A stretch of 64,000 nt of DNA from a virus: positions 32,001-96,000 of the IMG/VR virus record IMGVR_UViG_3300032288_003086. One strand, given 5' to 3'. Under the pieces are notes generated by a model. That model was not told the DNA's origin. It was given only the letters and a program-made list of their open reading frames with translations, and ran no database searches. The position numbers were made by a program, and so were the translations under genes. Shown piece by piece: positions 13,619 to 43,046 of the stretch (the stretch's first letter is position 1; the number at the start of each line of letters is the position of its first letter).

Positions 13619-13635
13619 TAAATCTCAAAAGTTTA
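13619..13635. promoter_or_regulatory. 17-bp palindromic operator-like site, copy 1 (TAAATCTCAAAAGTTTA)
   Basis: Resembles the copies at 60533 and 61283; overlaps the start codon of the 1101-aa gene. Confidence 0.3.
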
Positions 13636-19713: not shown

Positions 19714-22700
19714 ATGGTTGATCCATTTAACCTGTTTAGTTCAGATACAAGCTCAACACCAGATCCTACACCTGAACAAAGCGTAGGTGGAAGATCCTCT
19801 GAACCTGCTCAATCCCCTTCTCTTGGGGAGGCTGTCAATCAAGCTGCCAACACTGTAATGAGTCAGCAGCCGATGTTTGACGTTAGCAGCTATGACCCTA
19901 AGTTAAAAGAGCGTTACAAAAGCGATCCTAGTATCTACAATGATTACTTTGATCCTACTGCTGATAATGAAAGGGTTGCTTATGAGAACTGGGATAAGAT
20001 GGACGCCCTGGGTGCAGGATTCGGTGGCTTCATAGAAAACTTCAAAACATCTTATTCAGAAGGATGGATGGCCTGGCCTAGGATGGGTAAGGCTCTTTTT
20101 AATTTGGATGCTGATTATCTGATGCCTTCTGAGAAAGAACTTGCTCAGATGGCAATGAATGAGGAGAAGATGCGGCTTGAAAACCCTATCTTCTATGCTC
20201 CAGGTACGGAAGATGATTTCCTTACCAAAGGATTCATGGCTGAGACTTTTCAGAATCTTGGTTTCACTTTTGGTACAATGGGGCAGCTTACTACAGAGTG
20301 GGGTATAACAGCAGCAATTGCAGCTTTAGGAACAGCGGGTGCAGCTCCAACAGGAGGTACTTCAGCTGCAGCAGCAGGAGCTGTTGTAGGTGCACAAGTT
20401 GCAGCAACAGGTGTCAAGCTTGGAAGAATAGCTTCTGTATGGCAGAAGATGGGAAGGTTCTTTGTAGGAAGTGCTGCTGACGATGCTGCTAAGGCAGGTG
20501 TTAATGTTACTGCAAATGCTGTTGATGATATTACATCTACAGCCACACAAAGTGCCATAAGGAGAAGTGTTGCAGATGATGTTGCTTCATCAACTCTGGG
20601 ACCAGCTACTGGTGGAGGTTCCCGTATTTTGGATAATGCATTACAGCTTGCTTCAAAGACTCCTATAGTAGGGAATTTTGCAGATGCTGCTCGTATAATC
20701 AGGGCAGGAAGAAACGGTACACTTACAGGTGCTGAAATTGCAAAAGTAGGAGCAGGTGCTCTTAGAAGAGGATTTGCAGAATGGCAGATGGCTGCTGGTG
20801 AGGCATCCATTGAAGCAGGGGGCAACTATGGTCAGATTGTTACTACTCTTACTGATGAATACGCCAAGAAGAACAATGGCGCTCTTCCAATGGGAGATGA
20901 ATACAAGAAGATACAAGACCTGGCTATGCAGAGTGCCACTTCTGATTTTGCAACCAATGTGGCAATTCTTGCAGTAAGTAACAAGCTTATGTTTGGAAAC
21001 ATGATACGCAAGTTCATGCCAGACAGTAAAGCTGTTATTGCATTGAGAAGTGCCATGATGAAAGACATGGCTGAGGAAGCGGGAGTACTTGCTGTAAAAG
21101 GCATGGGTAAGGCTGGTAAGGAAACAACAAGGTTATATCAAAAAGGACTTTTAGGTACACTTGGTCTTGCTCCTCAGATTGCTACAACTTTTGGTGGTAA
21201 AAGAGCTGCTTGGGAAGTCGGTAAAAGTACTCTGAAAGGAGTGACTAGATTCCAACTATTGGAAGGTCTTCAAGAAAACTTGCAAGAAGGAACCAATGAA
21301 TATCTCATAGATTATTACACAGATTTATACAATGGTGATTTAGCTACTTGGGGTAAGTCATTTGATGAAGCTGTGGATTCCCAGATGACCAAGCGTGGAG
21401 CAAAGACATTCTTAATGGGTGCCATGACAGGATTGTTTGTGAATCCTGTGGTGAATACCATACAATATGGTGCGGCGGCTTCTGGTATTAATCCAAACTT
21501 GAAGAACCACCGTGAAAGCGTATCCAGGAGTGTGGAAGCCATGAATAACTTCTTCACTAGCGGGCATGAGAATGTATTGAAGGAGACTGTCAAAAACATC
21601 AAGCTTCAGACAGCTTATAATGACGGTATGGTGGAAGCGCTTAATACACAGGATAAGCTGCAATACTATAACAACAGAGATTCAGCTTTGATAGCTGCGG
21701 TGATGCATGCAAGAAGAACTGGAACCATGGATCATCTAAGCTCCTTTATAAAAGGATATGGTGAGAATTTTAGTGAAAAGGAATTTCAAGAGGCTTTCAA
21801 TTACACTCCTCAGGAGTTAGGCAAGTCATCTCCTTCTGAAGTCATGGGAGATATATCCAATTCTGTAAAGAAGTTCTCTGATATCTATGACAAGAACATG
21901 ACCAAGTTTGGTTTGTACTTGGGCATGGATGAATACATGAAGGATCCTGGAGCCAAACAAAGGTTTGGAATCAAGAAGGCGGCGTTATTAGATGCCATTG
22001 AAACAGTATCCTTCATGGAAGCTAAGGGTCAACAAAGTGTTGAACGCCAAAAACAAATGCTGCAGGAGATTGCCTCCTATGCTTCAATAGGCAGTAGTCT
22101 GTCTGGAGCATTCAATACCATCATCGACCCAGATGAGATCGACAATCAACTGCTCCTTCTTCAAAATGAGATAAAGACTCTAAGTGATATAGAGCAAACA
22201 GACCAGACCAAGAAAGCCATTGAGGGTAAAAATCAAGAGATAGATGACTTGAGCATACTTAAAATGTTCATGTATGATCCTCAAATTGCTAAAGATCCAA
22301 ATGATCCTTCCAAAAAGATAACTCTTTGGGATGTTCGTATGGCACTCAAGGATCAAGCAGGACTTAGAAAAGGTATTGCTACTGTTCTTTCTAGATATCT
22401 GCAAACCAAGAATGAACAGAATGGTGTAAAAACTCCTGTAAATGAACAGGAAGTATACGATGCCTTGGACACAATTCTGGACTATGTAGCTCTAGGTAGA
22501 GATCATGCTGAGTATGTACAGGCTATAAATTTGCTAAATGATCCTGAGACATTCACCAATCATATTGCAAAGATGCAAGATGCCAGGGCGGGTGCTTTTG
22601 CCAGATTGATATATGATCAATATCAAAAGCTTGGTGAGATAAGTGAAGTTGCAAGAGAGTGGGTAGAAGCTCCTGAACAAAAACAAGCTCTTGAGGAACT

Positions 22701-24576
22701 ACTCAAGATCAGTAAGAATCCTTCAGGCACATTTGAAAACCTTCAGAAGATAGAGCAGCTTCGCAGTAAACTTGCTGGTAAATCATCTGAGTTTGAAGCT
22801 CAGCGTACCCAGGAAGAGAAAGCTAAGCAAGAGGCAGTTGAAAAGGAGAGAGCTCAAAAACAGGCAGCTTCAGACCAGAGTAGGGACTATGTGGATATCA
22901 TATCATTATATGAAGATCCTGCCACTACACACCTTGCCCTTGAGTTCATGGCCATGCGTTATGATCTTGATGGGTTGCGGGACAACTTCCCATTTGCCAG
23001 TGAAGATCTTGCTCAAAGGGTTGTAAAAAGATATTATATAGGAGCCAATGGTGAGAGGGTTGAGTTCCCCAGGGCTTTAAGGATTAAACTCAGAAGTGAG
23101 CTGTATCCTTATGATGCAAACAATCAAAAAATACTTGATGAAAATCAAGAGCATGTACCAGTAGATACTGCTATTGATAATTACAATGCCCTGTTCCATT
23201 TTCTCATGGAGTATGAGTATGGTCTGTTTGTAAACCAGAAGGGCAATGAGATCATCCAAAACTCCCAACAGACAACAGAAACTGTTACTGCTGTAGATAA
23301 TGAGAAGGCCAAGCTGATAAACTTCGTAGGTACTCCTGTAGTTCTCAATGGAACATCAGGTACCTTGCGAATCATCGATGACCAGTTTATTCTGGAATAT
23401 GATAATGGAGACATGGTTCTGTTGGGCCCTGTATCTGAGGAAGCTTCATTTGACTCATTTACAGATCTTTCACGTTCCTATGTAAAGCAGTCCCCTGAGA
23501 ATGCCACAGTGGTGTCTAATACAGTTGCTGCCAAGGTAGATGTCCAGGAGTCTGGGGTAGTTACTATGGAAATATCTACAAACAACCCTAATGAAGTCAC
23601 TATAAACAATGTGACCTGGAGTGTAGATAGAAATCAAGCGGGAGAGATTATAGGATTTAACAGGACCACTGTTAATAAGAAAGGTAAGAGAAAGGTCCAA
23701 AAGATGTTTGGTACTGATCCAAAGGTTCAAGACTACATCCGCAGGGTCAATGCCTTTCTTATGATGACTCGTGCCATTCCAGATAACGTAATGGATGCTG
23801 CTACTGAGATTGAGAGTCTTGATATGGCTATTGCCCAAGCCACTCAGGAAGTCATGTCAATGGAGGAGCGCAAACTTCGCAGTGATGAGTTAATGGCTCA
23901 GTATCAAGTGAATAAGATTATCAGGGACAGTAAGACTCCTGATATCAACTTCTTGATACATCAGTGGAATAACTCTGAGACCAGAGCTGATATGACTCAA
24001 GAAGACTTGATGAAATTATTCATGTGGGCTTCTGACCTTCGTAACAAGATAAAAAGTAAGTTTACAATATACATGGGCAACAGAGTCTTGGAAGGAACCA
24101 TGGCTGAGTTGATCCAGGAGTATGTCAATCCCATATCTGAAATAATAGATGCAGATGCCACAGAACGAACAAAACCTAAAAGAGCTACAAAACGAGGTGC
24201 TAAAGAAAAGGAGCGAATTGAACAGCTTGATCAAGCTCTTGCCCCCAGAAAAGGCAAACGAGGTGCTAAGGAAGCTGGAGTCGAACCTGAAGGAAAAAAG
24301 CCCAAGCCAAGATCAGTAAAGACTGCTGTAGAGTCAGTAGACAAGAAGGCTGAGAAGAAGGCATCCAAGAGAGGTAAGTCTGAGACGAAATCTTCAGCTG
24401 TTGCTGACACACAACAGAAAGCCAGTCTAGGTCCTGGAACAAGGATGGCCAATAATATCACAGCCAAGAAGCTGGATACTATACAGCAATCCATAGCAGC
24501 ATCTAAAACATCTGAAATCTTCGAGCCGCAGGGTGAGAATCCATTTGAATCATTAAAACAAGCTTGTAATACATAA
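19714..24576 (+). CDS. Giant ejection protein 1, with hydrophobic Gly/Ala-rich putative membrane-inserting helices
   Basis: 1620 aa; WGITAAIAALGTAGAAPTGGTSAAAAGAVVGAQVAATG and FLMGAMTGLFV segments; EGLQENLQEG motif; first of the three giant genes around the virion RNAP. Confidence 0.7.
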   Translation: MVDPFNLFSSDTSSTPDPTPEQSVGGRSSEPAQSPSLGEAVNQAANTVMSQQPMFDVSSYDPKLKERYKSDPSIYNDYFDPTADNERVAYENWDKMDALGAGFGGFIENFKTSYSEGWMAWPRMGKALFNLDADYLMPSEKELAQMAMNEEKMRLENPIFYAPGTEDDFLTKGFMAETFQNLGFTFGTMGQLTTEWGITAAIAALGTAGAAPTGGTSAAAAGAVVGAQVAATGVKLGRIASVWQKMGRFFVGSAADDAAKAGVNVTANAVDDITSTATQSAIRRSVADDVASSTLGPATGGGSRILDNALQLASKTPIVGNFADAARIIRAGRNGTLTGAEIAKVGAGALRRGFAEWQMAAGEASIEAGGNYGQIVTTLTDEYAKKNNGALPMGDEYKKIQDLAMQSATSDFATNVAILAVSNKLMFGNMIRKFMPDSKAVIALRSAMMKDMAEEAGVLAVKGMGKAGKETTRLYQKGLLGTLGLAPQIATTFGGKRAAWEVGKSTLKGVTRFQLLEGLQENLQEGTNEYLIDYYTDLYNGDLATWGKSFDEAVDSQMTKRGAKTFLMGAMTGLFVNPVVNTIQYGAAASGINPNLKNHRESVSRSVEAMNNFFTSGHENVLKETVKNIKLQTAYNDGMVEALNTQDKLQYYNNRDSALIAAVMHARRTGTMDHLSSFIKGYGENFSEKEFQEAFNYTPQELGKSSPSEVMGDISNSVKKFSDIYDKNMTKFGLYLGMDEYMKDPGAKQRFGIKKAALLDAIETVSFMEAKGQQSVERQKQMLQEIASYASIGSSLSGAFNTIIDPDEIDNQLLLLQNEIKTLSDIEQTDQTKKAIEGKNQEIDDLSILKMFMYDPQIAKDPNDPSKKITLWDVRMALKDQAGLRKGIATVLSRYLQTKNEQNGVKTPVNEQEVYDALDTILDYVALGRDHAEYVQAINLLNDPETFTNHIAKMQDARAGAFARLIYDQYQKLGEISEVAREWVEAPEQKQALEELLKISKNPSGTFENLQKIEQLRSKLAGKSSEFEAQRTQEEKAKQEAVEKERAQKQAASDQSRDYVDIISLYEDPATTHLALEFMAMRYDLDGLRDNFPFASEDLAQRVVKRYYIGANGERVEFPRALRIKLRSELYPYDANNQKILDENQEHVPVDTAIDNYNALFHFLMEYEYGLFVNQKGNEIIQNSQQTTETVTAVDNEKAKLINFVGTPVVLNGTSGTLRIIDDQFILEYDNGDMVLLGPVSEEASFDSFTDLSRSYVKQSPENATVVSNTVAAKVDVQESGVVTMEISTNNPNEVTINNVTWSVDRNQAGEIIGFNRTTVNKKGKRKVQKMFGTDPKVQDYIRRVNAFLMMTRAIPDNVMDAATEIESLDMAIAQATQEVMSMEERKLRSDELMAQYQVNKIIRDSKTPDINFLIHQWNNSETRADMTQEDLMKLFMWASDLRNKIKSKFTIYMGNRVLEGTMAELIQEYVNPISEIIDADATERTKPKRATKRGAKEKERIEQLDQALAPRKGKRGAKEAGVEPEGKKPKPRSVKTAVESVDKKAEKKASKRGKSETKSSAVADTQQKASLGPGTRMANNITAKKLDTIQQSIAASKTSEIFEPQGENPFESLKQACNT

Positions 24577-24582
24577 GATACC

Positions 24583-27500
24583 ATGAGTTGTTTCGTACCA
24601 TATGATAGCCTTCAGAATACCTTGCTGGCCGCATACAGGAGTGATTTCAACAAGTTCAAAGAGTTATCCGCAGTGATTGGCTCTGTAATGGGCACTAGTC
24701 TTTCCCCAGAAGCCAAGATCCATGCTGTATGGTTCTATGCTGGCTTTGTGGATACTGCTGCCCAGAACATTCCTGAGTTGCAAACCCAACAGTGGAGTGA
24801 TGGTGCATATAGGAAGTTGCATAACTACCTCAAACCTTTCCTCAATGGAGAGCAGGCGTTTGATTATGATATGCTTCTTGGTAAGATCAATGAGTTACTT
24901 GCTCCAGTGACACCAGAAGTTACTCCAGCACCAGCAGCTCCTGTTGAAGTAATTGAATCCGATGACCGCAGTCTGTCAGAAAGAATCAATGATGCCATAG
25001 CTGAAACATCACAGATTACAGAATCTGATCTTTCCAGTCATGTCAATGACATCATTAAGATGATTACTGACAATGCTGTGGAGCTTAATGAAGTTGTCCT
25101 GGATCCTCAGACAACAGCTGTGGGCAACATGCTTAAGTACCTCAAAGAAGTATTGTCAAAAAGAGAGGACTCATCCACCAAGGTATCAGTCTTGGAGAAT
25201 GTGAACTATGCTATTGACAACATGCTTCAATCCGCCACCCAAGGTTCAAAGTATTTTGACTTGGCCGCGGTAGAAGGCATAAGCATGCACAATGGTTATC
25301 CAATTAAGATAGTCACTAAACCCAATGGTGAAAATATACAAGTAGTGTATTCACCTGAAAAGGGAATTGATGTATACTGGTCTCCAGGAACACAAGAGCA
25401 TCTTGAACCTTATATTCAAGATAAAAGTGATCATGCTACTAAAGTGTTTCCACAAAAAGATAACTTATATGTAACCAATCCTAACACTGGTGCATTACGC
25501 ATACAACCTGATCAATTGTTTACAGGGGTATCCATACCTTATGAGAATGACAAGATACAAGGTGAAAGAGCTGAGGCAATTTCCCAAAATGCTCCAATAG
25601 GTGCACCATTCCAATCTTCAGTGACAGTTCGTGCCCATACCAATACTGTGGAGTTAAATGCATCACGCGTTGAAAGACTGGCTCAGGAATATCCTGATGT
25701 CAATAGGACTCTTGAGACAATGGAAAGACCTAATCAGCGTGAGATGCTTAGGAATGGCAATGGTCCCATCATAACATTATACAGGCCTGTATCAGGATTC
25801 ACCATAAGGATCAATGATCAGCTGGGTAATAATGGATTTGATCTGGATACTCTGGCTAATCTTGCAATAGTATATCCTGACAATAGTGTAGTTCCTTTTG
25901 ATATAAACAACACTGAGCATGTCAATATCCTCAGGGCCAATGTTGAAACCAAGACTGGACCTGAGACATATGGCTCCATGACTGACAATCAGTTTGAGCA
26001 GTTGAAAGAGTCTTTGATTCGATACAAAGCATTTGAAAAAGAAGTGATGGAGCGTATGGAGCAAGAGAATAGCTCTGATGTGGACATCAAGGATATATTC
26101 AATAGGTATTATAACCTAAGTAATAACATCCAGACTTCTGAACTTATCTCAGATGCCAAGCCTAAGACTAGCTTACGTGAGTTCATTGAAGAGAATGATG
26201 GCTCATTGCCTGTAATGCTGCAAAGCACAGATCAGGAAAATGCACAACCTTACTCAGGTAGGATATACATTGTTCTTCGTAAGCAGAAAGGTGTGTGGAC
26301 AATTGAGAGCACTCTTCCCAAGAATACTGTTATTGTAGGCAGGGATGGCACCAAGTACAGGAGTATTGAGAACTATCTGAAATCAGAAGGGGTCGATTAT
26401 ACCCAGGAGATCACATCCAACTTTGGTAATAACCAGGCTGTATATCTCTCCTTTCAGTATGTAGGGAATAGATTGAATCCAAGGATCATTCCTTTGATGT
26501 ATGACAAGCGCGTGCGCAACAGCAAGGATGCTGTGGACTTTGCAAGTAGTCTTGTATACAGCTTTATGCAGGCTAGCATAAAAGAAGGTAACACTGCCAC
26601 TGCTGACCTTAACAATATATTGTGGGGATTTGATGTGATGGATGATACCAGAGCTCAGTTCACAGTATTGAAAGAAGTGGGTGGCAAGAAGACCTATGGT
26701 ATCAGGTTCTTTGGTCTGCCAGAGCTTCAGAACAATGACCCTGAGAGAGCTGAGATGCTTGATAAGAAAGGCAAGAACTATGATATCGAGTTCAGTTCTG
26801 ATATGATGAACTCCTTGTTCACAGCGTTGGACCAGATGATTAAGGAAGCTGGGGTGAAGATTCCAGAAAACGCATCTGTGAAACAACTTAACATGAGTGC
26901 CATGGAAGCCATGAATATCCTTGGCTCGGAACATGCGCTTGTGAAAAAGATAAGTGATCTTGTACAGGATCTTTCTGCTGATATAAAAAGGAAGTATGCC
27001 CAGACCATGACCAAGCATGACAGTGATGTCCATGATGGTGATCTGGCCATGCCCATATTCACTTCCAAGTTCAAGGACTTTTCCATGTTTGATGGCAACA
27101 TCATGAAGGTAAAGCGTAGAACAGAGAAGACTGATATCCTGGATGCCTATGACAGGTTGGAGACCAATGACCAAAAGAAGCTGACTGTTACTGCAAATGA
27201 GTCATCAACCAGGGTTTTATCAAGTATTCCTAACAGACTGCTTGAAGAACCTATGAAGGAGGCTCCATACAGTGCACCCATACAAGTACCAAAGCCAGCT
27301 CGTAAAGTGCTGGTGGATCCTACTTCTGTAGAGAATCCTTTGAACCAGCCTGTCAATCTTAATGAGATTGATGAGCAGAATAATGAAAATCCTTTCTCCC
27401 TTGTAGAAGATATTGAATCCTTCTTGACACTCTCAAATGAAGATTTCTCTTCTGAGATACAAGCCATGAAGGATCTCATGCCTGATGCTTTCACTTTTGT

Positions 27501-33500: not shown

Positions 33501-36231
33501 TGAAGAACGCATAGGGATTGAGGAGTTATTGGATCAAGACATCATGTATTTGAGTAAGACTGGAGCCAACTTTGATAAGGATTCCTACAAGCTTGTGTGG
33601 AATAACCAGATCAAAAAGGACGATCCTGAGTTTGGATCTAGCAAAGATCAGCCCTTGAACACTTTTGGATTTGAGCTTTACAACAAAAAGAACATTGCAT
33701 TTACCAGGGACATCGAGGACTTCATCATTCTCAATGAGTTCAAAAACTATAGCAACTTGGCCTCGGAGATCAGCTTTAAGATCACCAAGCTTACAGATGC
33801 ATTGAAGTCTATCAAGCCTGACATGGATACCTTCGACAGGTTGGTAAATACCTTTGATATAGTCAGGACTCGTCCTGAAGAATTGATGTTGAGTAAAAAG
33901 TCAATCCAGGACTTGTTTCAGATGTATCCTGTATTGCGAGAGTCTTATGAAGCATTGAAGTACATGGACAACATGTCCAGCAAAGTGCTACTTGAGCGTA
34001 CTAGTTTGATTAAAGGTATGTCTGCACTCATAGGTAATATCTATGGGTATGAAAGTTCAGAGATACGTAAGGACATCAAGGCTTTCATTGGACTTCAATT
34101 GCAGCGTGCAATGGCACAACGCGAGCCTGAGTCATTCATGAATAAGATGTTCTTGGAGCAGGTGAATCCTGAGACATTCCTCAATGGGGATGTCATTGCT
34201 GACTATAACCAACTCAAGTCCAGGTATCCTGGTAACAAGTTCATCCAGGCTTTGAGGATTGTGGATATAGGTACTACCTCTAGACCTGTAAGGGTATTGG
34301 AAGCAATATCCAGCAAGCTCTCTCCTGAGATGCGTGAGATGGTATACTCTGACTTGCTCAAGTTATTGGGTGAGGGATATGCCACAGAAGAGATGGGTGT
34401 AAATGGAGAGGTGATGCGTGTACTGGATAAGGAGCGTGCATTCAGGATTGCATACCATGGCATGGTGAAATCAGGTGCTCAAAAGGTGCGTGGCGGATTC
34501 TTTGAATTAGTGCCTGCTGTGCTTTCCAAACCCATGAGCACTGCCTTGGATAGCTTCCAAAGGGATCTGGTAAAGATGGATAACTACATCAAGAACAAGT
34601 ATGATGTATTTGAGGATGTAGATGGAAATCTACGTGCAGAACCACAAGCAGAAGAAGAATATCTAAAGATGCTTACTGCTGCCATATCCAAGAACTTTGG
34701 TCAGATGGGTATTGATGACATCATCCAGGATGCAGTTATAAAGATTGTGAGCATGAAGCTTGCAGATGGAACTATGACGCCATTCAAGCGGGTCACTTCT
34801 CTTAGAAAAATATCACAGCAACTAGATGAAACTGTGACTATGGAGGATATGGTTAAATTCTTCAACAAGATTGCTCCTGCAAATGCACCTTCAATCATAG
34901 ACAGTAAAGGTTTAAGGGTGTCTACTCTAGAGGCTCAGTACAAGGTTGCATCAGATGAGTATGAGTTATTCACTGGCGTTGACGGGGTACTTTTTCTTGA
35001 TCTTGCAGATGTAACCCAGCCTTTTGAAACGAAGATGCTCAGGGCATATGGTATAACCCCTAACTACAAGGACAAGAACTACAGGTTCCCTTTATATAGG
35101 ATCAACATATACGGTCAGCTGATGATGTTAAAACGCATCAATGGCAATCCTGTTGGTCAAAAGCTGATGGAAACCTTGTATCTTACACCATTCACCAATG
35201 TCCAGGAGTTACAACTTACAGGTGAAACTGCTGTATATGAAGTAGTTCCAGAACAAGGTGTAAGTAAGATATCTCCTTTGGCATTTACTTCTCAGGAAGC
35301 GGCGGTGATCAAGAACATTGTCAATGGTATCCAGCAGATATCAGATACCAGGATGATGGAAGTACCAAGGTCTATGACAATTGTCAGGGAGCAGAACAGG
35401 ATGTATGAGTTGAGAACCCAGAAGAATCCTTCAGGAGCCTACACTAACAAGACCATGTCTACCATCAACATGAGCATTGTAGAGACCACTGGTAAGTTCT
35501 CAAGGTTCAAAATGGTTGGTGGGGAGTTGTTTCAGTATCTGAATAATGAGCCAGCTGCAAGAGGTGTGAAGCAAGAACAGATGGATCTGTTTGCTCAAAG
35601 GGTTGGATTCAGCACCTGGGGTGAACTATCCAACAGCGAACGCTTCAAGGACTTTGTTAGTGGCAAAGAGAATTTGTTTCTTTACGAATTAAACAATGGG
35701 GATCCTACCTCTCCAACTGCTCAGCCATTGTCTTCAGCACCTACAACACCTCAAGTGACAGCACCTACCCAAGTTCCTGTAAGTGCTCAACCTGCTGTAA
35801 CAGATATTAAAGCGGAAGATATAACCTTTAAGTCAAAGAAGTTAGAAACATTTGAAAGAGCTGAAGGATTGGACGCTGTAAAAGGATATAGTCTAGTTAT
35901 AAAAAATCAACCTAGTGTTGATCTATTTGTCTATAAGGACAAAGAGGGGTGGATTATCATAGATAACACATCTAAACTTAAACTACCACTAAGAGGTACA
36001 GTTGATGGTAATAGTGCAAGAAAAGATGAAATAGTAGAGTTACTAAGTAATACTTTGAATTATTATGGAAAATTGGAAAGCAGTAGGAAGACATTAGAAA
36101 GTATTGGTTTTAACTTTACCCAAGCTCCTACCACTGAAAAAAGAGCTATGGACATTGTAAAGCTCAATCAGCAGGCACAGGATGTACTTAAACAAAAAGA
36201 AGACGAATCAAGAAATTGTAACGGAGGATAA
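24583..36231 (+). CDS. Virion-packaged multidomain RNA polymerase (crAss-like two-barrel RNAP) fused to a zincin metalloprotease domain
   Basis: 3882 aa; catalytic AGSDFDID (32377-32391, the crAss-type DFDID variant) preceded by RIPTEG; DGQSY; zincin YHEGFHG (27607-27621) with downstream EEYLAD. Confidence 0.9.
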   Translation: MSCFVPYDSLQNTLLAAYRSDFNKFKELSAVIGSVMGTSLSPEAKIHAVWFYAGFVDTAAQNIPELQTQQWSDGAYRKLHNYLKPFLNGEQAFDYDMLLGKINELLAPVTPEVTPAPAAPVEVIESDDRSLSERINDAIAETSQITESDLSSHVNDIIKMITDNAVELNEVVLDPQTTAVGNMLKYLKEVLSKREDSSTKVSVLENVNYAIDNMLQSATQGSKYFDLAAVEGISMHNGYPIKIVTKPNGENIQVVYSPEKGIDVYWSPGTQEHLEPYIQDKSDHATKVFPQKDNLYVTNPNTGALRIQPDQLFTGVSIPYENDKIQGERAEAISQNAPIGAPFQSSVTVRAHTNTVELNASRVERLAQEYPDVNRTLETMERPNQREMLRNGNGPIITLYRPVSGFTIRINDQLGNNGFDLDTLANLAIVYPDNSVVPFDINNTEHVNILRANVETKTGPETYGSMTDNQFEQLKESLIRYKAFEKEVMERMEQENSSDVDIKDIFNRYYNLSNNIQTSELISDAKPKTSLREFIEENDGSLPVMLQSTDQENAQPYSGRIYIVLRKQKGVWTIESTLPKNTVIVGRDGTKYRSIENYLKSEGVDYTQEITSNFGNNQAVYLSFQYVGNRLNPRIIPLMYDKRVRNSKDAVDFASSLVYSFMQASIKEGNTATADLNNILWGFDVMDDTRAQFTVLKEVGGKKTYGIRFFGLPELQNNDPERAEMLDKKGKNYDIEFSSDMMNSLFTALDQMIKEAGVKIPENASVKQLNMSAMEAMNILGSEHALVKKISDLVQDLSADIKRKYAQTMTKHDSDVHDGDLAMPIFTSKFKDFSMFDGNIMKVKRRTEKTDILDAYDRLETNDQKKLTVTANESSTRVLSSIPNRLLEEPMKEAPYSAPIQVPKPARKVLVDPTSVENPLNQPVNLNEIDEQNNENPFSLVEDIESFLTLSNEDFSSEIQAMKDLMPDAFTFVSTGLNGMNVDGHVLGYMQDMFIYLNETLRAKGVAYHEGFHGIFRKVLSKSQQDFYLNKVEEALGGYKTDDKGKYISVRGKKIYANDFRQRRKYGHLNDDQIRFLIYEEYLADSFADFMGTNKVPRTWMQKLFAYLKKLLNLFKKGGRIDNLFYDISLGKFRNAPIIDNQGPNMEKVYSLDFRGIPMAYVETTGKVITNNQIIGSEISLEVKDFILQGMAALSIKNPDMSASQLFDLARMEVLKMKDINTLISQSPEQEAEILAKYGEEFATARWLLGAMLEGETFTYRNLTNAQEYDNQATTSKKQNDIVIANLKRLKSTVIEEYNKLEDLEDVADDENFEEDFNKQDEEVEIKDSFYEGAGFVGIKPNEGNAAFRRMIRLITYEEIDPVLGIKVRRMVNSALIFSTITKIASTESKGNAIQAISDKIQELDSQIKYFRENVQSKLPNPNVIPISYDKAIKLRDSLKAVYDTIDNIVGLNEDFEATRNEHVLKQFSTVFSKTNIKLIQAEVTTEIEFDQNKKPVPVPTPESAVSDIVTLYDINKIRSSLRDSILSIDMTKDQAKPHLQKLRELAKLLNITKQSAIDNMLDTFFTDSGVINDHAFRNFIDDVYITLSAFNLDIPYSLLYNAIGHTVYMAMGKNLAMFPQNSDFRRSLSLNKDFFQDFSKVKHDFWYHNLVNAIEASVEASNESKMRMNNEALTTALKRFTTPYVAAYGEYIIKHDPTIAGSSTKNANGDTIYKYVDPNKEMIILQKLKSFDNIEEGLAAVLNDGFEHFYENNPMLDTNDPEVRAFLQNMRMEVFAGFQQRFNMPDGGVKMGDPRTFKDIDDAAFLMSMLSLFVSQERIYVPETKSYITSFKRILTVYEATGTSMVTNGVLRRYFDNASGNVLSENGRPKYLWDLVNVLKQEYELIRTNYEQERTNDANTKKYLNYNINSAIDEKTGFPKDRGFRFNVLADFADANPDLAKELIMAAKEGLSFDAIMASKSEKVLVDDMLNNLHKYAQNQYVTFRDKFQSLGLDETHIPLYVTDVFDEEAQVFQNANPTTVLREFFFNNWINSLSLNQIFDGPVAVGVKNFANFFKRQKAGAAAGPSLFNPHVNKYGVSKTYRAAVIKEIVMYLDDSDLTKPASFTPYYEKGDKRNVEVKMIDGQSYNTIARMVNVADSRGRLDNESYRMLKRMMYETEDTSQYAKNVRKLNKRGIVFNSLKTVTAGRIEYVKQSEHTIMRKDVSTLKEGVDYNTAMQELDVLYDRIMDYSYMLQAGRDEMVFDPSNNRERLVSELYKEAVTQAHSYFEPIPQHAFMHHMLNSMELHRIDQMFDPNASKKMTINPVEVDLQPSTTGMTYYNLDQAVMDLPNEFTFIQVSTEKDANMVTQGIQQKLLLAAQIAAENPEYASIKDDINTYNTGLAQMVKTQLKVLQRMFNTKDTEVIGKIYQVISAGLKQQGADSTILQYFELNPNGSPKYNPNLMVVQSTIANYFFSIFNNNLFDKKIAGRKYYHVSSMGYNVIEMDGKVITTSEYKRNKSKYDKAIAAGEAKVRPLSYTKTKLADGTYKYEVEVIIPKELQSLDQEFLEKYMSEFFATRIPTEGQRSMIVAKVVDYMDEAYGSGIIVPPQAHMLAGSDFDIDALYAHVKSSYRTPDGKKVLYGDYSHYIEKYDMSEKDAKFMEYLVYLSKDPVMQPLLQSELRRINYEAGYKQEQARNFGSLFGGKLEEFFSKNASTMEKGEVESDSEQESIDTFKRVIAVFNVLEDLKKSNLPSDPDSLEKETKKNGSPVIPLIQNKILQAKMNILSNEAVYKKFMEESSNRADVAADPYKAAVSERGLSETEIYNKQNIYTPTAMVVARGLNSESKDSLGIAASFNKGVSMLATVQAELKGKVGTVYEPNAKGNPEQSIVTDKVVDESVKIVGGYIGVAADAANNPYPGPLHLNSHTVPVMLAMFTVGMPQRMAIMFQSLPIIQKIVAEYTMEYGSAYKKNPYSKDMRFDTFLRDMINELEERIGIEELLDQDIMYLSKTGANFDKDSYKLVWNNQIKKDDPEFGSSKDQPLNTFGFELYNKKNIAFTRDIEDFIILNEFKNYSNLASEISFKITKLTDALKSIKPDMDTFDRLVNTFDIVRTRPEELMLSKKSIQDLFQMYPVLRESYEALKYMDNMSSKVLLERTSLIKGMSALIGNIYGYESSEIRKDIKAFIGLQLQRAMAQREPESFMNKMFLEQVNPETFLNGDVIADYNQLKSRYPGNKFIQALRIVDIGTTSRPVRVLEAISSKLSPEMREMVYSDLLKLLGEGYATEEMGVNGEVMRVLDKERAFRIAYHGMVKSGAQKVRGGFFELVPAVLSKPMSTALDSFQRDLVKMDNYIKNKYDVFEDVDGNLRAEPQAEEEYLKMLTAAISKNFGQMGIDDIIQDAVIKIVSMKLADGTMTPFKRVTSLRKISQQLDETVTMEDMVKFFNKIAPANAPSIIDSKGLRVSTLEAQYKVASDEYELFTGVDGVLFLDLADVTQPFETKMLRAYGITPNYKDKNYRFPLYRINIYGQLMMLKRINGNPVGQKLMETLYLTPFTNVQELQLTGETAVYEVVPEQGVSKISPLAFTSQEAAVIKNIVNGIQQISDTRMMEVPRSMTIVREQNRMYELRTQKNPSGAYTNKTMSTINMSIVETTGKFSRFKMVGGELFQYLNNEPAARGVKQEQMDLFAQRVGFSTWGELSNSERFKDFVSGKENLFLYELNNGDPTSPTAQPLSSAPTTPQVTAPTQVPVSAQPAVTDIKAEDITFKSKKLETFERAEGLDAVKGYSLVIKNQPSVDLFVYKDKEGWIIIDNTSKLKLPLRGTVDGNSARKDEIVELLSNTLNYYGKLESSRKTLESIGFNFTQAPTTEKRAMDIVKLNQQAQDVLKQKEDESRNCNGG

Positions 36232-36233
36232 TA

Positions 36234-39200
36234 ATGTCAAATTGTGCTATACTAAGAGATCCCGATTCTGGGAAAGTTGTTAATGTGTATGCTCCTAATG
36301 GTGAGCCCTCCATCCTATACCAGGATGCGCTTGTTGCATTTGGTCAAAATGCTGACAAAGCCATACTTGCCTGGGCTGCGGCATATACTCCTGAGTTCAT
36401 GGGGTATTATGGAGACTGGATAAATGAACCTTCAAAGGTGTCTTTGGATGCCAATGGAGAACCTATATCCAGCATGGTATTCCTCAGTGTATATGATGTA
36501 CTGAGGGATCCTAGATATAAGAGCATCGCCCGCAAAACAGGATACATTCCTTTCAGGGAAGCTGTCAGGATAAAGAACAGTCTTGAAAAAGCCATACCTG
36601 GATCCAGATACAAACTTGAAGAAAGCCGTGCTGAACCTGGCTATGCCAAAGTAACTGCATTGTCCAGCATCTTTTCATATGCTCCTAACTATACCAAGGA
36701 AGAGATACAAAGACAGAAGGAAAAGATCACTCCTATAATGGAGTATATGATCCGCAAGTTCCCTGGGGTTTCATATCAATGGATATCTCCAAATCAACTT
36801 AAACAGACTGAGCACTATACTGACATACGAAGGATCAACTCCTTTGTAAAAGACAATGTGATATATCTGGTTGAGGGAAGGGTTACTCCCCAGATTGCAC
36901 TGGAAGAGATAAGCCACGTGTTTGTGGAGTTCCTCAGACAAGATCGCCCTGCTCTGTTCAAAGGTCTTTTTGAATCCCTTAAGAATGATCCTAAGTATGC
37001 AGCTGAGTATGTTGCCATATTTGAAGGACTGAGAGCTGAGAATAAATTATTCATGAATGATCTAAAGGTCGTTGCTCAAAGTGAATTCATTGCCAGGAAT
37101 CTTGCCACTGCGTTGAAGGCTGAGTTGGAAATGAATCCAGAAGGAAGACCTTTATCTCCTTTGGGTAAGCTCTTCAAAAGGTTTTTTGATTGGTTGGCCA
37201 ATGCCCTTGGTATGCCTAGGATAGACCCCAAGATGACTTTGCAGGACATAGCTGCACATCTTAATAGCAAGTACACAGAAATGGAGCTTCCTACTGAGCC
37301 ATATCTGTATTACAATGCTGATCCCAATGCCAACTTCGATCCTGAAGACAGGGATGCTGCAGAAGAACTGAATCCCATAGGTGAGACACAAAGAAAAAAG
37401 AAGACTGCTCAAGAGCTCAATCTACAAAGAGCTAAGGAGAATGTAGAGAAGTTGAATAAGATGAAGGCTTTTGTTTTGCGAACTAAGCCCAACAACAAGC
37501 AGCGTGAGAATCAAATTGCTGTCATAGATATATTGATTGACAATGCCAACTACCAAGTCACTGAACTTGAAGCTGGGCGTGCTACAGTCAGTATCACCAA
37601 GTACAAGGGGTCAGAGGACACTGAATCCTTGGATAACAAAACAGCAGAGATGGGTGCCAACTTTGGTACATTCTTCCATACGCTGATTGAAGACTTACAG
37701 GATAGCTACATGGAGAATGGTATTAATCCTACCAAGCTCTATACTCAAGAATGGTTTGATGCATTCTATGAGAAACATAAGAAGATGATCCAGTTCAAGG
37801 ATGTTGACAAACAACTGCTGTTTGATGCAGGGTTAGAGATATCACAAGCTTTGTCTTCTGAGTTCTTACGTGGTAAGATCCTATTGCCAGAGATATCAGT
37901 GGCTGTTGAAGATGCCCAAGGTACTTTGATACTGGGTAGGTTGGATCTTATGGCACTGGATGAATTAGGTAGGGTTTCTGTAATGGACTTGAAAACATCA
38001 AAGTCAGCACACTCTTTGGTCAACTTGAATGGTGGTCCAATGTTCCCAATGATAGACCTCAGTGTAAGTTACACTAATAAGAATGGATGGAAAGACGGGG
38101 TTTCAGAGTTCTTTGCAGATATCCTCAATAGAACAAAGATGAACACCTACCACATGCAGCTTGCACTGTATGGAGAGATGTTGAAAAAGCTGGGTATAGT
38201 AGTGTCTTCAAGAAATGTCCTTGCATTAGCTTATAGGGTTCAAGGGAAAGAAGCTGATCAACAGACTGTAGTCCAGACAGCATTTCATGTATTTGATGAT
38301 AGCAGTTTCTACACTTTTGCTTTCAATGGTCAAAAAGCATCAGATGAAGGACGAATCATAGACACTGCTGCTAGACTGGCATTCAATGGACGTGAAGAAG
38401 AGATAGATGAAGATGCGGCTGCTGAGACAGACCCAGGTCCTTTTGCAAGGATGAGTAAGGATGTCCAGGAAGACTTGATCAACAGACTCATCAAACTCGC
38501 AACTGATCAGCTGGCAACTATTGAGAAAGAGCGTTCTGAAATTGAAAAGAATGACTTGATTGACAAGGACGAGAAGAACAACCTGATAAAGATCCTTACC
38601 AAGAGGAAGGCTGGTCTTGTGGACATGTCAGAAAAACTGAAGCTTGCAATCTCCAATCCTGCATCCAGCGAAAGCCTTGCAGCTTCAAGGGCTGTGATAA
38701 TAAAAGCGGCGTTGGATGTATTCTCCAATGAGATATCCACCATCTCTAGAAAGATAAATGAAGACATTGACATACCTGCCACATATAAACTAGGCAGTGA
38801 TGAGAACAGGACTGCTATTGCAACATTGCAGTCATATCTCACATCCATGGATAACATGGCTGATTACCTGCAAGGATTCAAGAATACGATACTTGCAACC
38901 ACCCTTGATCCAGATTCACAAAAGGATGAGGCACTGAAGAAGGATCTGATCCGATACTTCGACGACAAGCTTTTCACAATAGACGCCCAAAACCAGAAGA
39001 TGGTCAACATAGGTAAGAGTATTACCAAAGCCATTATCATGGAGACTATTGGGACTAAGAACTTTGAGAAGGTGTTTGGGGAAGTCAAGAAGGTGCTGGC
39101 ACCAAGACTTGCTTGGTTGGACAGGACTATTGAGAAGATAAAGAAAGGAGAAGCTCCTGCTGATACCATGGGTCTGAAGGCAAGGCGTGTGCTTGCCAGC

Positions 39201-42200
39201 ATATTCAAGCAGGTTCAAAACCCTAAGGAAAGGCTACAACTCTTAGAAGAAGAGAGAAACAAGATTGCCAGGATGATGGATATCAATCAGCTTACTGATG
39301 CAACTTTGGATACCTATTTGGATGGCATCTTGAATGATGACAACTCAAGTTTCTCCATGGGTCAGACCATGGGAAATGTCTTGGGTATAAGCATGAGTGA
39401 TATCATAGGTTCCAACGCGGACTCTGAAATGATTGTCAGTGCCATGTTCCAATACATGAGGAACATGACTGAAGATGCCAGGATTGAAGCATTAAGATGG
39501 GCTGATAGCTTGGGTATAGATGAGCTTAAAAGAGCTGCCATAGAATCCTTGGGAGGATTGCAACAGGCCAACAAGATATTGACTCAGGAAGTAGAAGTAG
39601 TGACTGAGTTTGATGAGAATGGTGAACCTGAGTTGAAGGAAACATATAGACAATATGTGGATCCTGTGCTTGAAGACTTTTATAAGACACACGACAAATA
39701 CAGGTCAAACCTGCGTAAGTATTCCAAACTGATACGTGAGAAGAGTGTTGAGAAAAGAAACGAGGTAGATCCTGTAAAGGCTGCTATCCTGGATCAACAG
39801 CTTAAAGAACTCATCAAGGAGGAAGAGGCTTTGAGTTTGGAGTGGACACAGTGGAGGATTGACAACACTGAGACCAGAATCAAACCAGAAGTACTCATGC
39901 TAATGCATGGTAGTGGCTTTACCAACAGTCAGATCACTGAGAACTATAGTCAAATCAATGCAATCATAAATGCTGCGGGTGGTGAAGAGAATCTCTCTGA
40001 AGACCAACAAGAGCAGATTGATTATCTGGAAGCTGAGATATCAAGGATCAGGACTGAGACTATCAAAGACAATCCTGAAGCACAAGAAAGGATTGATGCT
40101 TTATTGGAGTACTTTGAGTTTGATTATAACTATACCCTGTGGGCAAAGAAGCGTGTTGCTATTGAAGCCAGCGGCGACAAGAAGGCTTTGGAAAGGTGGG
40201 ATTACAATAACACCAATGAAGTTCCTACTGAAGATTGGAATCAAGCCAGGGAAAAGTTGTATGAGGACATGATGGACATCCTTGGTAAGGATGAGGTGTT
40301 AGGTAATCTGTATCGTGAGAGATCCCTTATCAAAGCCAAGGCAAAGATCAGAGGCAAGTTTAATTTCAACTACCTTAACCAGGAAGACATTGATAGGTAT
40401 CATGCTTTGGACGAGCAGATATCCAATAGGTTGGCATACTTGAGGGAAACATCTCCTTTGACAGAGGGTGAGGCGGCGGACTTGACAATAGTCACACAAA
40501 GGCTTGCCAATATAGAAATCAAAGTCCTTGATCCAAGATACATACGTCAAAGGGATCAATTGAAAGATACTGTACGCAAAGCATACGCTGCATTGAATGA
40601 AGCCAAGAAGAAATTCACTGAGGCACCAGAGTCCATTGGCTTACGTGATCAGCTTGATGCTGCCCAGAGTCACTATGAAAAGACAGAAAGGGAGTTTGCA
40701 GATTTCTTCAATAAGAATAACCAGAGCAAGTATACCTTGGGAGAGAACATCATTGCTGAAAGAAAAGCATTGAAGGAACTTCCCAACTCTTATCTGTTTG
40801 TCAAGCAGCCTAAGAATCCTGCTGACATGGAGAGATTCCCTAACAAGAAGTATCGCATCAAGCGTCTGAAGTCTGAGTCATACAATCCCAAGTATCAGAA
40901 CTCCTTTGTGGAGGACAGGATGGGTGGGGGCATGTATCCTATGCCAAAAGGCATCAGGTTCAATGAAACCATCAATGAGTTTGAGATATCACCTAGTGCC
41001 AAGTTCGTGAATCCAAACTTCATGACTGTGCAGAATAATCCTATAGCAAAGGATTTCTACAAGAAGTGGATTATAGAGCAGTATCTGATTAAGCAGAAGA
41101 ATGCCAGTGGTAAAAGACTAGGCTTTAATCTTCCTTATGTCCAACAGCTCGCACTAGAGAATGTCATGGCAAAAGGGATGGATGGTATGGCTAGGGAGTA
41201 TCAGGAGAAACTCCAGGAGATTTCATATCAGAACAGTGAGCTAGAGAAAGCAACCAATGAATCAGGTATAGCAGGACAACAGCGGGTGTTGTTCAAAGAG
41301 AACCACCTTGTTCCTGCAGCACTTACCACCACTGATGGCATAGGTGCCATTGTGAATTGGAATGCGGGGTACTACACCAATAGAAAGATGGCTATGATAT
41401 CCAATGAGATGTCGGCAGTCTTGACATTCTTGAAAGACATTCAGCGTCAGATACAGGATCAAAGCGCAGGTCTACAGGATGCCAATAAGGAATCCCATGC
41501 TCAAAGGCTTGAGGCTATAAACTCAATCATCACCCAGATTGAATACAACAAAGACAAGTTCATATTTGGAAAGCTGTTTGAAAAGGGAGATTCTGAGAAC
41601 AGTGTGTTCAATAGAAAAACCATGCGTCTGTTCATGGGTGTGGCCAGCTTTGCTCGTATGGCATTTGATGTGCCTATGCAGTTTGGTAACATGTTATCTG
41701 GAAACGTTCAGGCATTCCTTTCAACTTCCAACCATAGACATGCCAGTACTCAGAACTATCTGAACGCTAAAAAGATGATATACACCAGATGGTTCCCTAA
41801 GATGATTGCAGACTGGGGTACTGTATCTGATGCAAGTTTTGAGACCAAGTTGTTTAGATATATGAATCCATTGTCCAAAGATCTGGACAGGTTGTTTGAT
41901 GCCAATACAGTGAGTAAGATGAGAAGGCTTGGTAACAGGATTTTCAACATCACTGACTTGTCCATGGCTTTACAGGATAAAGGTGAGATTGAAATAGGAC
42001 TTACCACTATGTTGATGATCATGGATGGTCGCCGCTATGAGGTATTTGATACAGATAGCCAGGGTAATTTACTGATGGATGATCAAGGCAACAGGGTTGT
42101 CAAAAAGAATCCTGATGGAAGTATCGTATATGTGAATGCCATAGATGCGTTTGGTATAGATGAAAACAACAGCATAGCACCCAAGAAGAATGTGAACATC

Positions 42201-43046
42201 TCCCAACAAGAGATCAACAGTCTTAAGTCATTGATAATGGGTGAGATATATAGGCACCAGGGTAACTATGCCAACTATACCAAAAGTAAGTTTGGTAGTA
42301 CAATGCTGGGTTCACTCTATGAGTTCTATCGTAAGTATCTTATCCCAGCTGTATCAGTTCGCTTCCATTTAGGTAAACGCGAGGGAGTTGGATCCATGTA
42401 TTCTTGGGATACCCAGGAAGCTTACATGGGTTGGTATATGGCACTTGGAAGAATGTATCAGTACTATGGCCTGGGTAAAGCGACTAAGACACTTCTCTAT
42501 GATACTCTTCTGCCAGGACTGGTTAAAAAGAAGATAAATGCGGATACTGGTATTGAGCAACATGACTTCTATAGGGGGCGTGCAGCTATGGCTGGGCGTG
42601 AAATCCTTATAGCTATTGCTTTCTACATGCTTTATCAAACCCTCAGGAGTGCTTTATATGATGGGGATGAGGAAGATTTCACTTATGCTGAACTGAGTAT
42701 GATGCGTGCGCTTGTAAAAGTGAGTAATGAATCACGGTCTATGGTGCCTTTGTTTGTGGTTGGTAAGCCTGGGGATTACATTGACAACTTTGGCAGCTTT
42801 ACTTCAGCTTTCAGGGAGGGTAAGACTATCTGGGAACTGGGTAATAATGCATTCTTCTGGGCAAATTACCACACTACAGGAAGTATGTTTGCCTATGAGC
42901 GTGGGTTCTATCAAAGGGATACAGCCAGGTTTGAAGAAGGAGATGCCAAAGTGTTGAAGAATCTCTATGATCTTACAGGTTGGTCCAACGTTGTAGATAC
43001 ATTTGAGCCATATGAAGCTGCTAAAGCCAACCTTAAAATGAAGTAA
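36234..43046 (+). CDS. Giant ejection protein 3, with a degenerate zincin-like domain, a PD-(D/E)xK nuclease-like domain and C-terminal hydrophobic helices
   Basis: 2270 aa; ALEEISHVF (HExxH with the first His lost); LPEISV..GRLDLMA..VMDLKTS..YHMQLALY; EILIAIAFYMLY near the C-terminus. Confidence 0.7.
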   Translation: MSNCAILRDPDSGKVVNVYAPNGEPSILYQDALVAFGQNADKAILAWAAAYTPEFMGYYGDWINEPSKVSLDANGEPISSMVFLSVYDVLRDPRYKSIARKTGYIPFREAVRIKNSLEKAIPGSRYKLEESRAEPGYAKVTALSSIFSYAPNYTKEEIQRQKEKITPIMEYMIRKFPGVSYQWISPNQLKQTEHYTDIRRINSFVKDNVIYLVEGRVTPQIALEEISHVFVEFLRQDRPALFKGLFESLKNDPKYAAEYVAIFEGLRAENKLFMNDLKVVAQSEFIARNLATALKAELEMNPEGRPLSPLGKLFKRFFDWLANALGMPRIDPKMTLQDIAAHLNSKYTEMELPTEPYLYYNADPNANFDPEDRDAAEELNPIGETQRKKKTAQELNLQRAKENVEKLNKMKAFVLRTKPNNKQRENQIAVIDILIDNANYQVTELEAGRATVSITKYKGSEDTESLDNKTAEMGANFGTFFHTLIEDLQDSYMENGINPTKLYTQEWFDAFYEKHKKMIQFKDVDKQLLFDAGLEISQALSSEFLRGKILLPEISVAVEDAQGTLILGRLDLMALDELGRVSVMDLKTSKSAHSLVNLNGGPMFPMIDLSVSYTNKNGWKDGVSEFFADILNRTKMNTYHMQLALYGEMLKKLGIVVSSRNVLALAYRVQGKEADQQTVVQTAFHVFDDSSFYTFAFNGQKASDEGRIIDTAARLAFNGREEEIDEDAAAETDPGPFARMSKDVQEDLINRLIKLATDQLATIEKERSEIEKNDLIDKDEKNNLIKILTKRKAGLVDMSEKLKLAISNPASSESLAASRAVIIKAALDVFSNEISTISRKINEDIDIPATYKLGSDENRTAIATLQSYLTSMDNMADYLQGFKNTILATTLDPDSQKDEALKKDLIRYFDDKLFTIDAQNQKMVNIGKSITKAIIMETIGTKNFEKVFGEVKKVLAPRLAWLDRTIEKIKKGEAPADTMGLKARRVLASIFKQVQNPKERLQLLEEERNKIARMMDINQLTDATLDTYLDGILNDDNSSFSMGQTMGNVLGISMSDIIGSNADSEMIVSAMFQYMRNMTEDARIEALRWADSLGIDELKRAAIESLGGLQQANKILTQEVEVVTEFDENGEPELKETYRQYVDPVLEDFYKTHDKYRSNLRKYSKLIREKSVEKRNEVDPVKAAILDQQLKELIKEEEALSLEWTQWRIDNTETRIKPEVLMLMHGSGFTNSQITENYSQINAIINAAGGEENLSEDQQEQIDYLEAEISRIRTETIKDNPEAQERIDALLEYFEFDYNYTLWAKKRVAIEASGDKKALERWDYNNTNEVPTEDWNQAREKLYEDMMDILGKDEVLGNLYRERSLIKAKAKIRGKFNFNYLNQEDIDRYHALDEQISNRLAYLRETSPLTEGEAADLTIVTQRLANIEIKVLDPRYIRQRDQLKDTVRKAYAALNEAKKKFTEAPESIGLRDQLDAAQSHYEKTEREFADFFNKNNQSKYTLGENIIAERKALKELPNSYLFVKQPKNPADMERFPNKKYRIKRLKSESYNPKYQNSFVEDRMGGGMYPMPKGIRFNETINEFEISPSAKFVNPNFMTVQNNPIAKDFYKKWIIEQYLIKQKNASGKRLGFNLPYVQQLALENVMAKGMDGMAREYQEKLQEISYQNSELEKATNESGIAGQQRVLFKENHLVPAALTTTDGIGAIVNWNAGYYTNRKMAMISNEMSAVLTFLKDIQRQIQDQSAGLQDANKESHAQRLEAINSIITQIEYNKDKFIFGKLFEKGDSENSVFNRKTMRLFMGVASFARMAFDVPMQFGNMLSGNVQAFLSTSNHRHASTQNYLNAKKMIYTRWFPKMIADWGTVSDASFETKLFRYMNPLSKDLDRLFDANTVSKMRRLGNRIFNITDLSMALQDKGEIEIGLTTMLMIMDGRRYEVFDTDSQGNLLMDDQGNRVVKKNPDGSIVYVNAIDAFGIDENNSIAPKKNVNISQQEINSLKSLIMGEIYRHQGNYANYTKSKFGSTMLGSLYEFYRKYLIPAVSVRFHLGKREGVGSMYSWDTQEAYMGWYMALGRMYQYYGLGKATKTLLYDTLLPGLVKKKINADTGIEQHDFYRGRAAMAGREILIAIAFYMLYQTLRSALYDGDEEDFTYAELSMMRALVKVSNESRSMVPLFVVGKPGDYIDNFGSFTSAFREGKTIWELGNNAFFWANYHTTGSMFAYERGFYQRDTARFEEGDAKVLKNLYDLTGWSNVVDTFEPYEAAKANLKMK

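Follow-up and report, generated by a model that had tools for sequence, protein, structure and literature searches.

How a podophage passes megadaltons of protein, including an RNA polymerase (RNAP) of 2000 to 4000 residues, through a tail too narrow for the folded proteins remains open and has been discussed for phages crAss001 and N4; here and below, what is said of published work refers to excerpts of the papers cited. The 64-kb window considered here (the whole stretch of DNA analyzed, 64,000 nucleotides [nt]) comprises bases 32001-96000 of a virus genome that is complete at 124,086 bp and has direct terminal repeats (IMG/VR record IMGVR_UViG_3300032288_003086) and raises this question at a run of three giant genes. 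Their products, of 1620, 3882, and 2270 amino acids (aa), are called chain protein 1, the RNAP, and chain protein 3, and the two places where their ends face one another are called junctions 1 and 2 (Table 1). The three proteins, 7772 aa together, contain four Cys in all, one per facing end. We consider it probable (roughly 0.6) that head-to-tail disulfides join them into a near-linear chain of ~879 kDa, which is cut in the reducing cytoplasm.

Terminal cysteines in the window and its relatives

Translation of the open reading frames (ORFs) puts the four Cys exactly where the original prediction had located them: protein 1 ends ..LKQACNT, the RNAP begins MSCF.. and ends ..SRNCNGG, and protein 3 begins MSNCA... 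All four codons lie ≤18 nt from stop and start codons. Under random placement of four Cys along 7772 residues, the probability that every one of the four facing 4-residue ends receives one is ~1.7e-12. The 1101- and 923-aa proteins encoded upstream have 0 Cys each, as had also been claimed; together with them the block extends to 9796 consecutive residues with 4 Cys, none of them internal, while Cys makes up 0.9-2.9% of most of the remaining ORFs of ≥150 aa in the window. The companion claim that the external tail proteins are Cys-rich held for the 1608-aa protein (19 Cys) but not for the 1166- and 940-aa proteins (2 each).

Residues ~2400-2680 of the 3882-aa protein match crAss-like RNAPs, including those of crAss002 and p-crAssphage, with 25-29% identity over ~200-270 aa (tblastn), and its DxDxD motif is invariant, which bears out the RNAP label it had been given. 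BLASTP also matches it to phi14:2 g066, crAss001 gp50, and p-crAssphage gp44; the corresponding motif in phi14:2 gp66 is DFDID, at 1361-1365. In the window and in 76 further loci the RNAP gene follows the tail and cargo genes and has giant genes on either side; in the window a PHROG virion structural protein is encoded upstream. Because of the RNAP matches, the DxDxD and HExxH motifs, and the domain in protein 3, the phage is, on sequence grounds, a distant crAss-like virus. No PHROG family was found for any of the five Cys-poor proteins (1101, 923, 1620, 3882, and 2270 aa), and their only Pfam domain is PD-(D/E)XK in protein 3, two sub-threshold matches of the 923-aa protein being disregarded. 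The 1101- and 923-aa proteins gave no BLAST match to crAss001 gp45/gp46 and no Pfam match above the cutoff; that they are cargo is presumed from gene position alone. Most related loci have a 923-like Cys-free ORF upstream of the chain (827-1123 aa, starting MAT[YF]..).

The terminal Cys are deeply conserved. Among 44 relatives of the 3882-aa protein (24-100% identity), drawn from 5.8 billion proteins and not selected for Cys, all 44 have a Cys ≤6 residues from the C-terminal end, down to 24% identity; 27 have one at position 3-5, and many have no further Cys. The C3879 column is invariant in a 40-row alignment (A1). The single 3882-aa query returned no locus from IMG/VR, and A1 used as the query returned the 76 loci with flanks. 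At the junction between the giant and the downstream gene, both facing Cys are present in 58 of the 61 nonredundant giants whose C-end is complete and which are followed by an ORF. The upstream (N-side) junction (n = 52) has both Cys in 19 cases, neither in 30, and is discordant in 3. Miscalled start codons explain L045, one of the three C-side exceptions, and L061 and L062, two of the three N-side discordant cases. Over the loci and the window together, 245 nonredundant adjacent gene pairs divide into 90 with both Cys, 138 with neither, and 17 that are discordant, the majority of these being ordinary Cys-rich proteins. Internal Cys number 65 in the 427,150 residues of 166 chain proteins (0.015%). 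Terminal Cys stand ≤4 residues from the chain end in the window and ≤9 in all relatives examined, and chains of 2, 3, and 4 members carry 2, 4, and 6 of them.

Two cultured phages obey the same rule, so the count of Cys in orthologues came out as the original prediction expected. In phi14:2, the last residue, C1797, is the sole Cys of g067; g066 (the crystallized RNAP) has just C3 and C2179, and g065 just C3. Tandem mass spectrometry (MS/MS) underlies the annotation of all three as virion proteins. In crAss001, the single Cys of gp47 stands 3 residues from its C-end, gp50 carries C5, C2404 (9 from the end), and 1 internal Cys, and C5 is the sole Cys of gp49; BLAST pairs gp47 with g067, gp50 with g066, and gp49 with g065. 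Since crAss001 gp47 is encoded on the strand opposite gp50 and gp49, the rule holds between proteins and not between adjoining stretches of DNA. The phi14:2 gp67-gp66-gp65 and crAss001 gp47-gp50-gp49 sets thus resemble the window in their homologous RNAP, three-giant order, and terminal Cys; in contrast, the window RNAP is longer (3882 aa versus 2180-2412), has its own HExxH region, and shares only 20-29% identity with theirs over the catalytic core.

Presence in the virion and delivery into the host are known for the module proteins of phi14:2 and crAss001 only (PMC10172136; 10.1101/2020.03.07.982082). For crAss001, three cargo proteins associated with the RNAP are reported, along with partial unfolding during ejection and contact of cargo proteins with the portal; in its virions the tail and gp57 contain disulfides (PMC10172136). 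Oxidized Cys therefore exist in crassvirus particles. The passages on crAss001 cargo make no mention of cysteines (PMC10172136), and neither "cysteine" nor "disulfide" occurs in the available text of the phi14:2 preprint (10.1101/2020.03.07.982082). Within the excerpts of the literature covered (including PMC10172136, 10.1101/2020.03.07.982082, PMC13434306, PMC11445570, and PMC12002296; main texts, not the crAss001 supplementary tables on disulfides and MS), we found no description of the terminal-Cys pattern for crassviruses.

Gene breaks, fusions, and selection on the residue

Places where the chain has been cut or joined differently in evolution bear directly on whether the facing Cys belong together. 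At 8 loci an extra protein of 193-744 aa is encoded after the giant and before the last protein, in every case with exactly one Cys near each terminus; by BLAST, 6 of the 8 align with the C-terminal portion of unsplit giants, five over their full length. Judged by this homology, the extra proteins are split-off pieces of the giant, and every new break has a new Cys pair. Fusions show the converse. Of 28 giants without an N-terminal Cys, 19 have first ~900 residues homologous to a separate protein 1, and window protein 1 matches the N-terminal part of two fused giants (L058 and L074); the protein upstream of the protein 1-RNAP fusions is Cys-free. p-crAssphage gp44 is an RNAP fused to a g065-like last-protein part and lacks a C-terminal Cys, while the gp45/gp44 break carries a facing pair (..FSCM at the stop codon, MSC.. 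at the start).

The phi14:2 preprint (10.1101/2020.03.07.982082) reports that the three module proteins are fused in some phages. Such fused crAss-like polyproteins have the same domains as the window proteins, with a peptide bond in place of the presumed disulfide and with the junction Cys absent; where genes are fused, the peptide bond would fill the same role. Cys pairs at new breaks, their absence at fusions, and their retention in orthologues agree with the pairwise link of facing termini in gene order that had been proposed, and the comparisons strongly indicate that facing Cys are paired across the order. The terminal-Cys rule may explain why the module splits and fuses so freely in evolution.

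The position of the window Cys codons beside stop and start codons could also reflect a signal at the DNA or RNA level (translational coupling, readthrough, or frameshifting) or inherited chance. We give this explanation a negligible probability. Both codons occur (TGT/TGC, 67/22 on the C-side and 77/12 on the N-side), intergenic gaps range from -7 to +80 nt, and all three relative frames are represented; the crAss001 partners lie ~11 kb apart on opposite strands; and at one locus (L043, 12400-12993) a GIY-YIG ORF (Pfam, E value 8.3e-7), a homing-endonuclease gene, splits two chain genes whose facing Cys are nevertheless kept. Selection thus acts on the residue and not on the DNA, and a DNA-level signal is excluded by these comparisons; the Cys is also retained down to 24% protein identity. 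A 247-aa ORF between chain genes at L052 (13785-14528) resembled another homing endonuclease but drew no Pfam match; the facing Cys are kept there as well.

Around the Cys we found no conserved flanking motif, nor any conserved His, Cys, Asp, or Glu beside either member of the pair that could act as a co-ligand. Alignments A2 and A3 comprise 56 rows picked for having the pair, out of 62 pairs, L018, L024, L038, L043, L059, and L065 having been dropped as wrong junction types. The Cys is the sole invariant column, against a mean column identity of 11-13%; because the rows were chosen for the pair, this invariance arises by construction, and only the absence of any other conserved residue is informative. 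A split intein or trans-splicing junction, for which halves of tens of residues with conserved blocks would be expected, was considered and rejected: the C-terminal Cys has only 0-7 residues after it and the N-terminal Cys 2-5 before it, with no flanking motif conserved.

Probable joining of the facing ends

A structural precedent exists in an unrelated podophage. The cryo-electron microscopy structure of cyanopodophage A4 includes a disulfide in the virion from gp27 Cys1715 to gp26 Cys5 (PMC12002296, PNAS 2025), presented there as stabilizing a static pentameric pre-ejectosome ring of gp27 and gp26 and not as a general rule (PMC12002296). In the record of Anabaena phage A-4L, adjacent genes encode a 1717-aa protein whose sole Cys is C1715 and a 1114-aa protein whose sole Cys is C5. 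This signature, a C-end Cys in the upstream protein and an N-end Cys in the downstream one, both otherwise Cys-free, is also that of the window chain proteins; the difference is that A4 (Saffermanviridae) has one link and no RNAP, whereas the window has two predicted links that include the RNAP. No phmmer match at E up to 1 connects A4 gp27 or gp26 with the window, the cultured crAss proteins, the 71 giants, or the 22 protein-1 sequences; by analogy, the likeness between A4 and crAss-like phages is one of mechanism, not of family. Also in A-4L (L079), gp29 has 0 Cys and gp28 only C1036/C1039.

In the Schitoviridae (N4-like phages), the ejection operon shows Cys suppression as a conserved feature, which has been tied to passage through the periplasm (PMC11445570). 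N4 gp50/51/52 (L081) have 0 Cys in 4294 aa; T7 (L083) has none in gp15 or gp16 and only one in gp14, at position 2. The giant ejected proteins of Schitoviridae (N4 gp50/51/52, including the virion RNAP, and DEV gp71/72/73) and T7 gp15/gp16 are thus near or wholly Cys-free, like those of the window. Unlike the window with its four terminal Cys, N4 and T7 have no terminal Cys pairs and so no possible thiol link, and their RNAP is of another fold family. The original prediction had held that no such link had been described: for crassviruses we found none in the excerpts covered, but the A4 disulfide (PMC12002296) and the Cys suppression of Schitoviridae (PMC11445570) are published. What would be new here, by analogy with both, is a chain of several links, with the virion RNAP among its members, that unites terminal disulfides of the A4 type with Cys suppression of the N4 type.

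In the mechanism that we favor, the three giants would be made separately and then packed into the capsid. Two inter-protein disulfides would form in the virion, protein 1 C1618 with RNAP C3 and RNAP C3879 with protein 3 C4, giving a hetero-trimeric thread of ~7772 residues (~879 kDa) in gene order. This thread would be pulled, unfolded or partly unfolded, through the portal and tail, each protein dragging the next, until the reducing host cytoplasm cut the links and freed the RNAP and its partners. With Cys at the extreme ends and none elsewhere, the thread would be almost unbranched, free of loops and stray cross-links, and so well adapted to crossing the tail and periplasm. We infer the disulfide nature of the links, the timing of their formation, threading in one piece, and release by reduction.

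Co-folding of the terminal pairs, which the original prediction had put forward, gave weak model-based support at junction 2, and bears on that junction only: the C-terminal 150 aa of the RNAP with the N-terminal 400 aa of protein 3 scored 0.39 versus 0.00 for the best control, a mark that 58 of 80 solved complexes and 2 of 110 mismatched pairs attained, with scores ≤0.60 more often wrong than right. In this co-fold the predicted local distance difference test (pLDDT) value of the partners was at least 51, and agreement between runs was at least 29%.

The same disulfides could form at the facing ends and yet serve co-packaging, a 1:1:1 stoichiometry, or inactivity of the RNAP in the particle, with no linked threading. 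The A4 disulfide does stabilize a static ring (PMC12002296), phi14:2 gp66 was reported in a self-inhibited, pre-packaging state (10.1101/2020.03.07.982082), and nothing in the present data bears on the ejection step. We still regard such a role, taken by itself, as unlikely: it leaves the end position in every lineage and ~427,000 otherwise Cys-free residues unaccounted for, and the fused polyproteins show that a continuous chain is tolerated. That the facing termini meet through a bridging metal (Zn, Fe, or Cu) or some other nondisulfide contact, with the thiols as ligands alongside other residues or further copies, seems to us quite unlikely. Both-or-neither pairing would suit any pairwise thiol contact, the four terminal Cys of the window could make one tetrahedral site, and the co-fold weakly supports contact whatever the chemistry; against this, the missing co-ligand is hard to reconcile with a metal site, and the sole solved case of the signature, A4, is a disulfide (PMC12002296). 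A single four-Cys metal node was considered separately and rejected, because the 2, 4, and 6 Cys in chains of 2, 3, and 4 members mean that it does not generalize.

It is improbable that each terminal Cys binds instead a third partner (the portal, capsid interior, DNA, or membrane) or a second copy of its own protein. A few unpaired terminal Cys, those of L047, L039, L053, and L067 and C2 of T7 gp14, would fit an anchor, as would the contact of crAss001 cargo with the portal (PMC10172136). An anchor, however, does not predict that the first protein has a C-terminal Cys only, the last an N-terminal Cys only, and the middle one both, nor that both Cys vanish at fusions and arise together at splits.

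Several points weigh against a disulfide-linked, ejected chain. No experiment shows a disulfide or other covalent link between chain proteins in any crassvirus. The bacterial cytoplasm is reducing, which leaves when and where oxidation would happen a difficulty. In a search of the 124,086-bp genome for a thiol oxidase or reductase of the phage itself, no thioredoxin-family gene (PF00085) was found, while controls were positive in 13 of 14 genomes; for Erv1/ALR (PF04777) neither this genome nor the controls gave a match, so that result carries no weight. N4 and T7 eject giants without such Cys, so the chain is not required for ejection as such. Locus ORFs were called with translation table 11 and the first-ATG rule only. 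The junction counts (61, 52, and 245 pairs) include related genomes: on a tree of RNAP cores, only 2-3 changes of state fall on the junction of protein 1 with the RNAP, and three independent pairs, too few for significance, gave 2 concordant changes, 0 opposite, and 1 unchanged (sign test, p = 0.5).

Individual loci also depart from the rule. The giants of L047 and L049 have an N-terminal Cys and no adjacent partner (L047, 8798-8894, starts MIC..); in L039 (17746-19110) a 384-aa protein with the end ..NTCA has, 209 nt downstream, a Cys-free 1422-aa protein as its neighbor; L041, possibly a broken gene, lacks the C-terminal Cys; and upstream proteins of L053 and L067 end ..KC with no partner. 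The partners missing at L039 and L047 may be encoded elsewhere in those genomes. The comparative case rests on deep conservation of Cys over a near-zero background, several separate fissions and fusions at differing sites, the rearrangement in crAss001, and an unrelated phage with the same signature.

If the linked chain is real, terminal-Cys stitching could be read from genomes as a marker of ejected proteins and of their order. With a rule that can be read from genomes, one can test which proteins are joined, their order, and whether the joining bond is one that the cytoplasm cleaves; phi14:2 and crAss001 are cultured phages that obey the rule. The rule is also a simple annotation aid for ejected proteins and gene breaks in uncultured crassviruses. 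Only tentatively, and with more doubt than confidence, do we extend this to a redox-cleavable ejected "polyprotein" of up to ~0.9 MDa that would cross the tail and oxidizing periplasm as one unbranched polymer, with reduction as the switch that releases and activates the RNAP and with A4 as a convergent instance of a general podophage rule.

Gene run and neighboring features

The chain genes belong to a run of closely spaced plus-strand genes whose products measure, in order, 1608, 1166, 940, 1101, 923, 1620, 3882, and 2270 aa.

Table 1. Coordinates, in window positions, of the chain genes, their terminal Cys codons, and other features of the gene run
Feature	Position	Strand	Remarks
1608-aa virion structural protein	2420-7246	+	PHROG match; 19 Cys
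1166-aa protein	7243-10743	+	Just upstream of the Cys-free block; 2 Cys (C279/C284)
940-aa protein	10745-13567	+	Just upstream of the Cys-free block; 2 Cys (C226/C229)
1101-aa protein	13635..16940	+	0 Cys; cargo presumed from position only
923-aa protein (MATYLKGV..)	16940..19711	+	0 Cys
Chain protein 1	19714..24576	+	1620 aa, 178.8 kDa; sole Cys C1618, 3 residues from C-end
C1618 codon (TGT)	24565..24567	+	Junction 1, upstream side
Chain protein 2, virion-type RNA polymerase	24583..36231	+	3882 aa, 440.3 kDa; Cys only C3 and C3879; N-terminal HExxH region
C3 codon (TGT)	24589..24591	+	Junction 1, downstream side
HExxH motif (H1009, E1010, H1013)	27607..27621	+	Invariant in 40 homologues; zincin-like metalloprotease signature
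DxDxD two-barrel RNAP catalytic motif (D2599, D2601, D2603)	32377..32391	+	Invariant in 40 homologues
C3879 codon (TGT)	36217..36219	+	Junction 2, upstream side; invariant column in alignment A1
Chain protein 3	36234..43046	+	2270 aa, 259.4 kDa; sole Cys C4
C4 codon (TGT)	36243..36245	+	Junction 2, downstream side
PD-(D/E)XK nuclease-like domain, chain protein 3 aa 470-591	37641..38006	+	PF12705, E 1.3e-5, 25.7 bits (cutoff 22)

In the window RNAP the HExxH motif sits ~1600 residues before the catalytic motif, in one polypeptide. The Drobysheva preprint (10.1101/2020.03.07.982082) states that the module includes a zincin domain; in phi14:2 the zincin-like domain is reported in a separate protein, gp65, and the p-crAssphage annotation puts it in gp45. 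Given the PD-(D/E)XK-like domain of chain protein 3, a nuclease might be delivered alongside the RNAP.

The 1166- and 940-aa proteins match no PHROG or Pfam family; their paired Cys (CxxxxC and CxxC, respectively) could bind a metal at a small site or form a local disulfide within virion proteins that are otherwise poor in Cys. The gene after the chain (43226-44062) starts MTP.EK.Q.., is Cys-rich (6 Cys in 278 aa), and ends ..CP. Its counterparts in three relatives (L001, 29033-30547; L003, 11353-12870; L004, 27852-29390) encode 504-512 aa with 14-15 Cys and all share the ..CP end; the window copy is about half as long.

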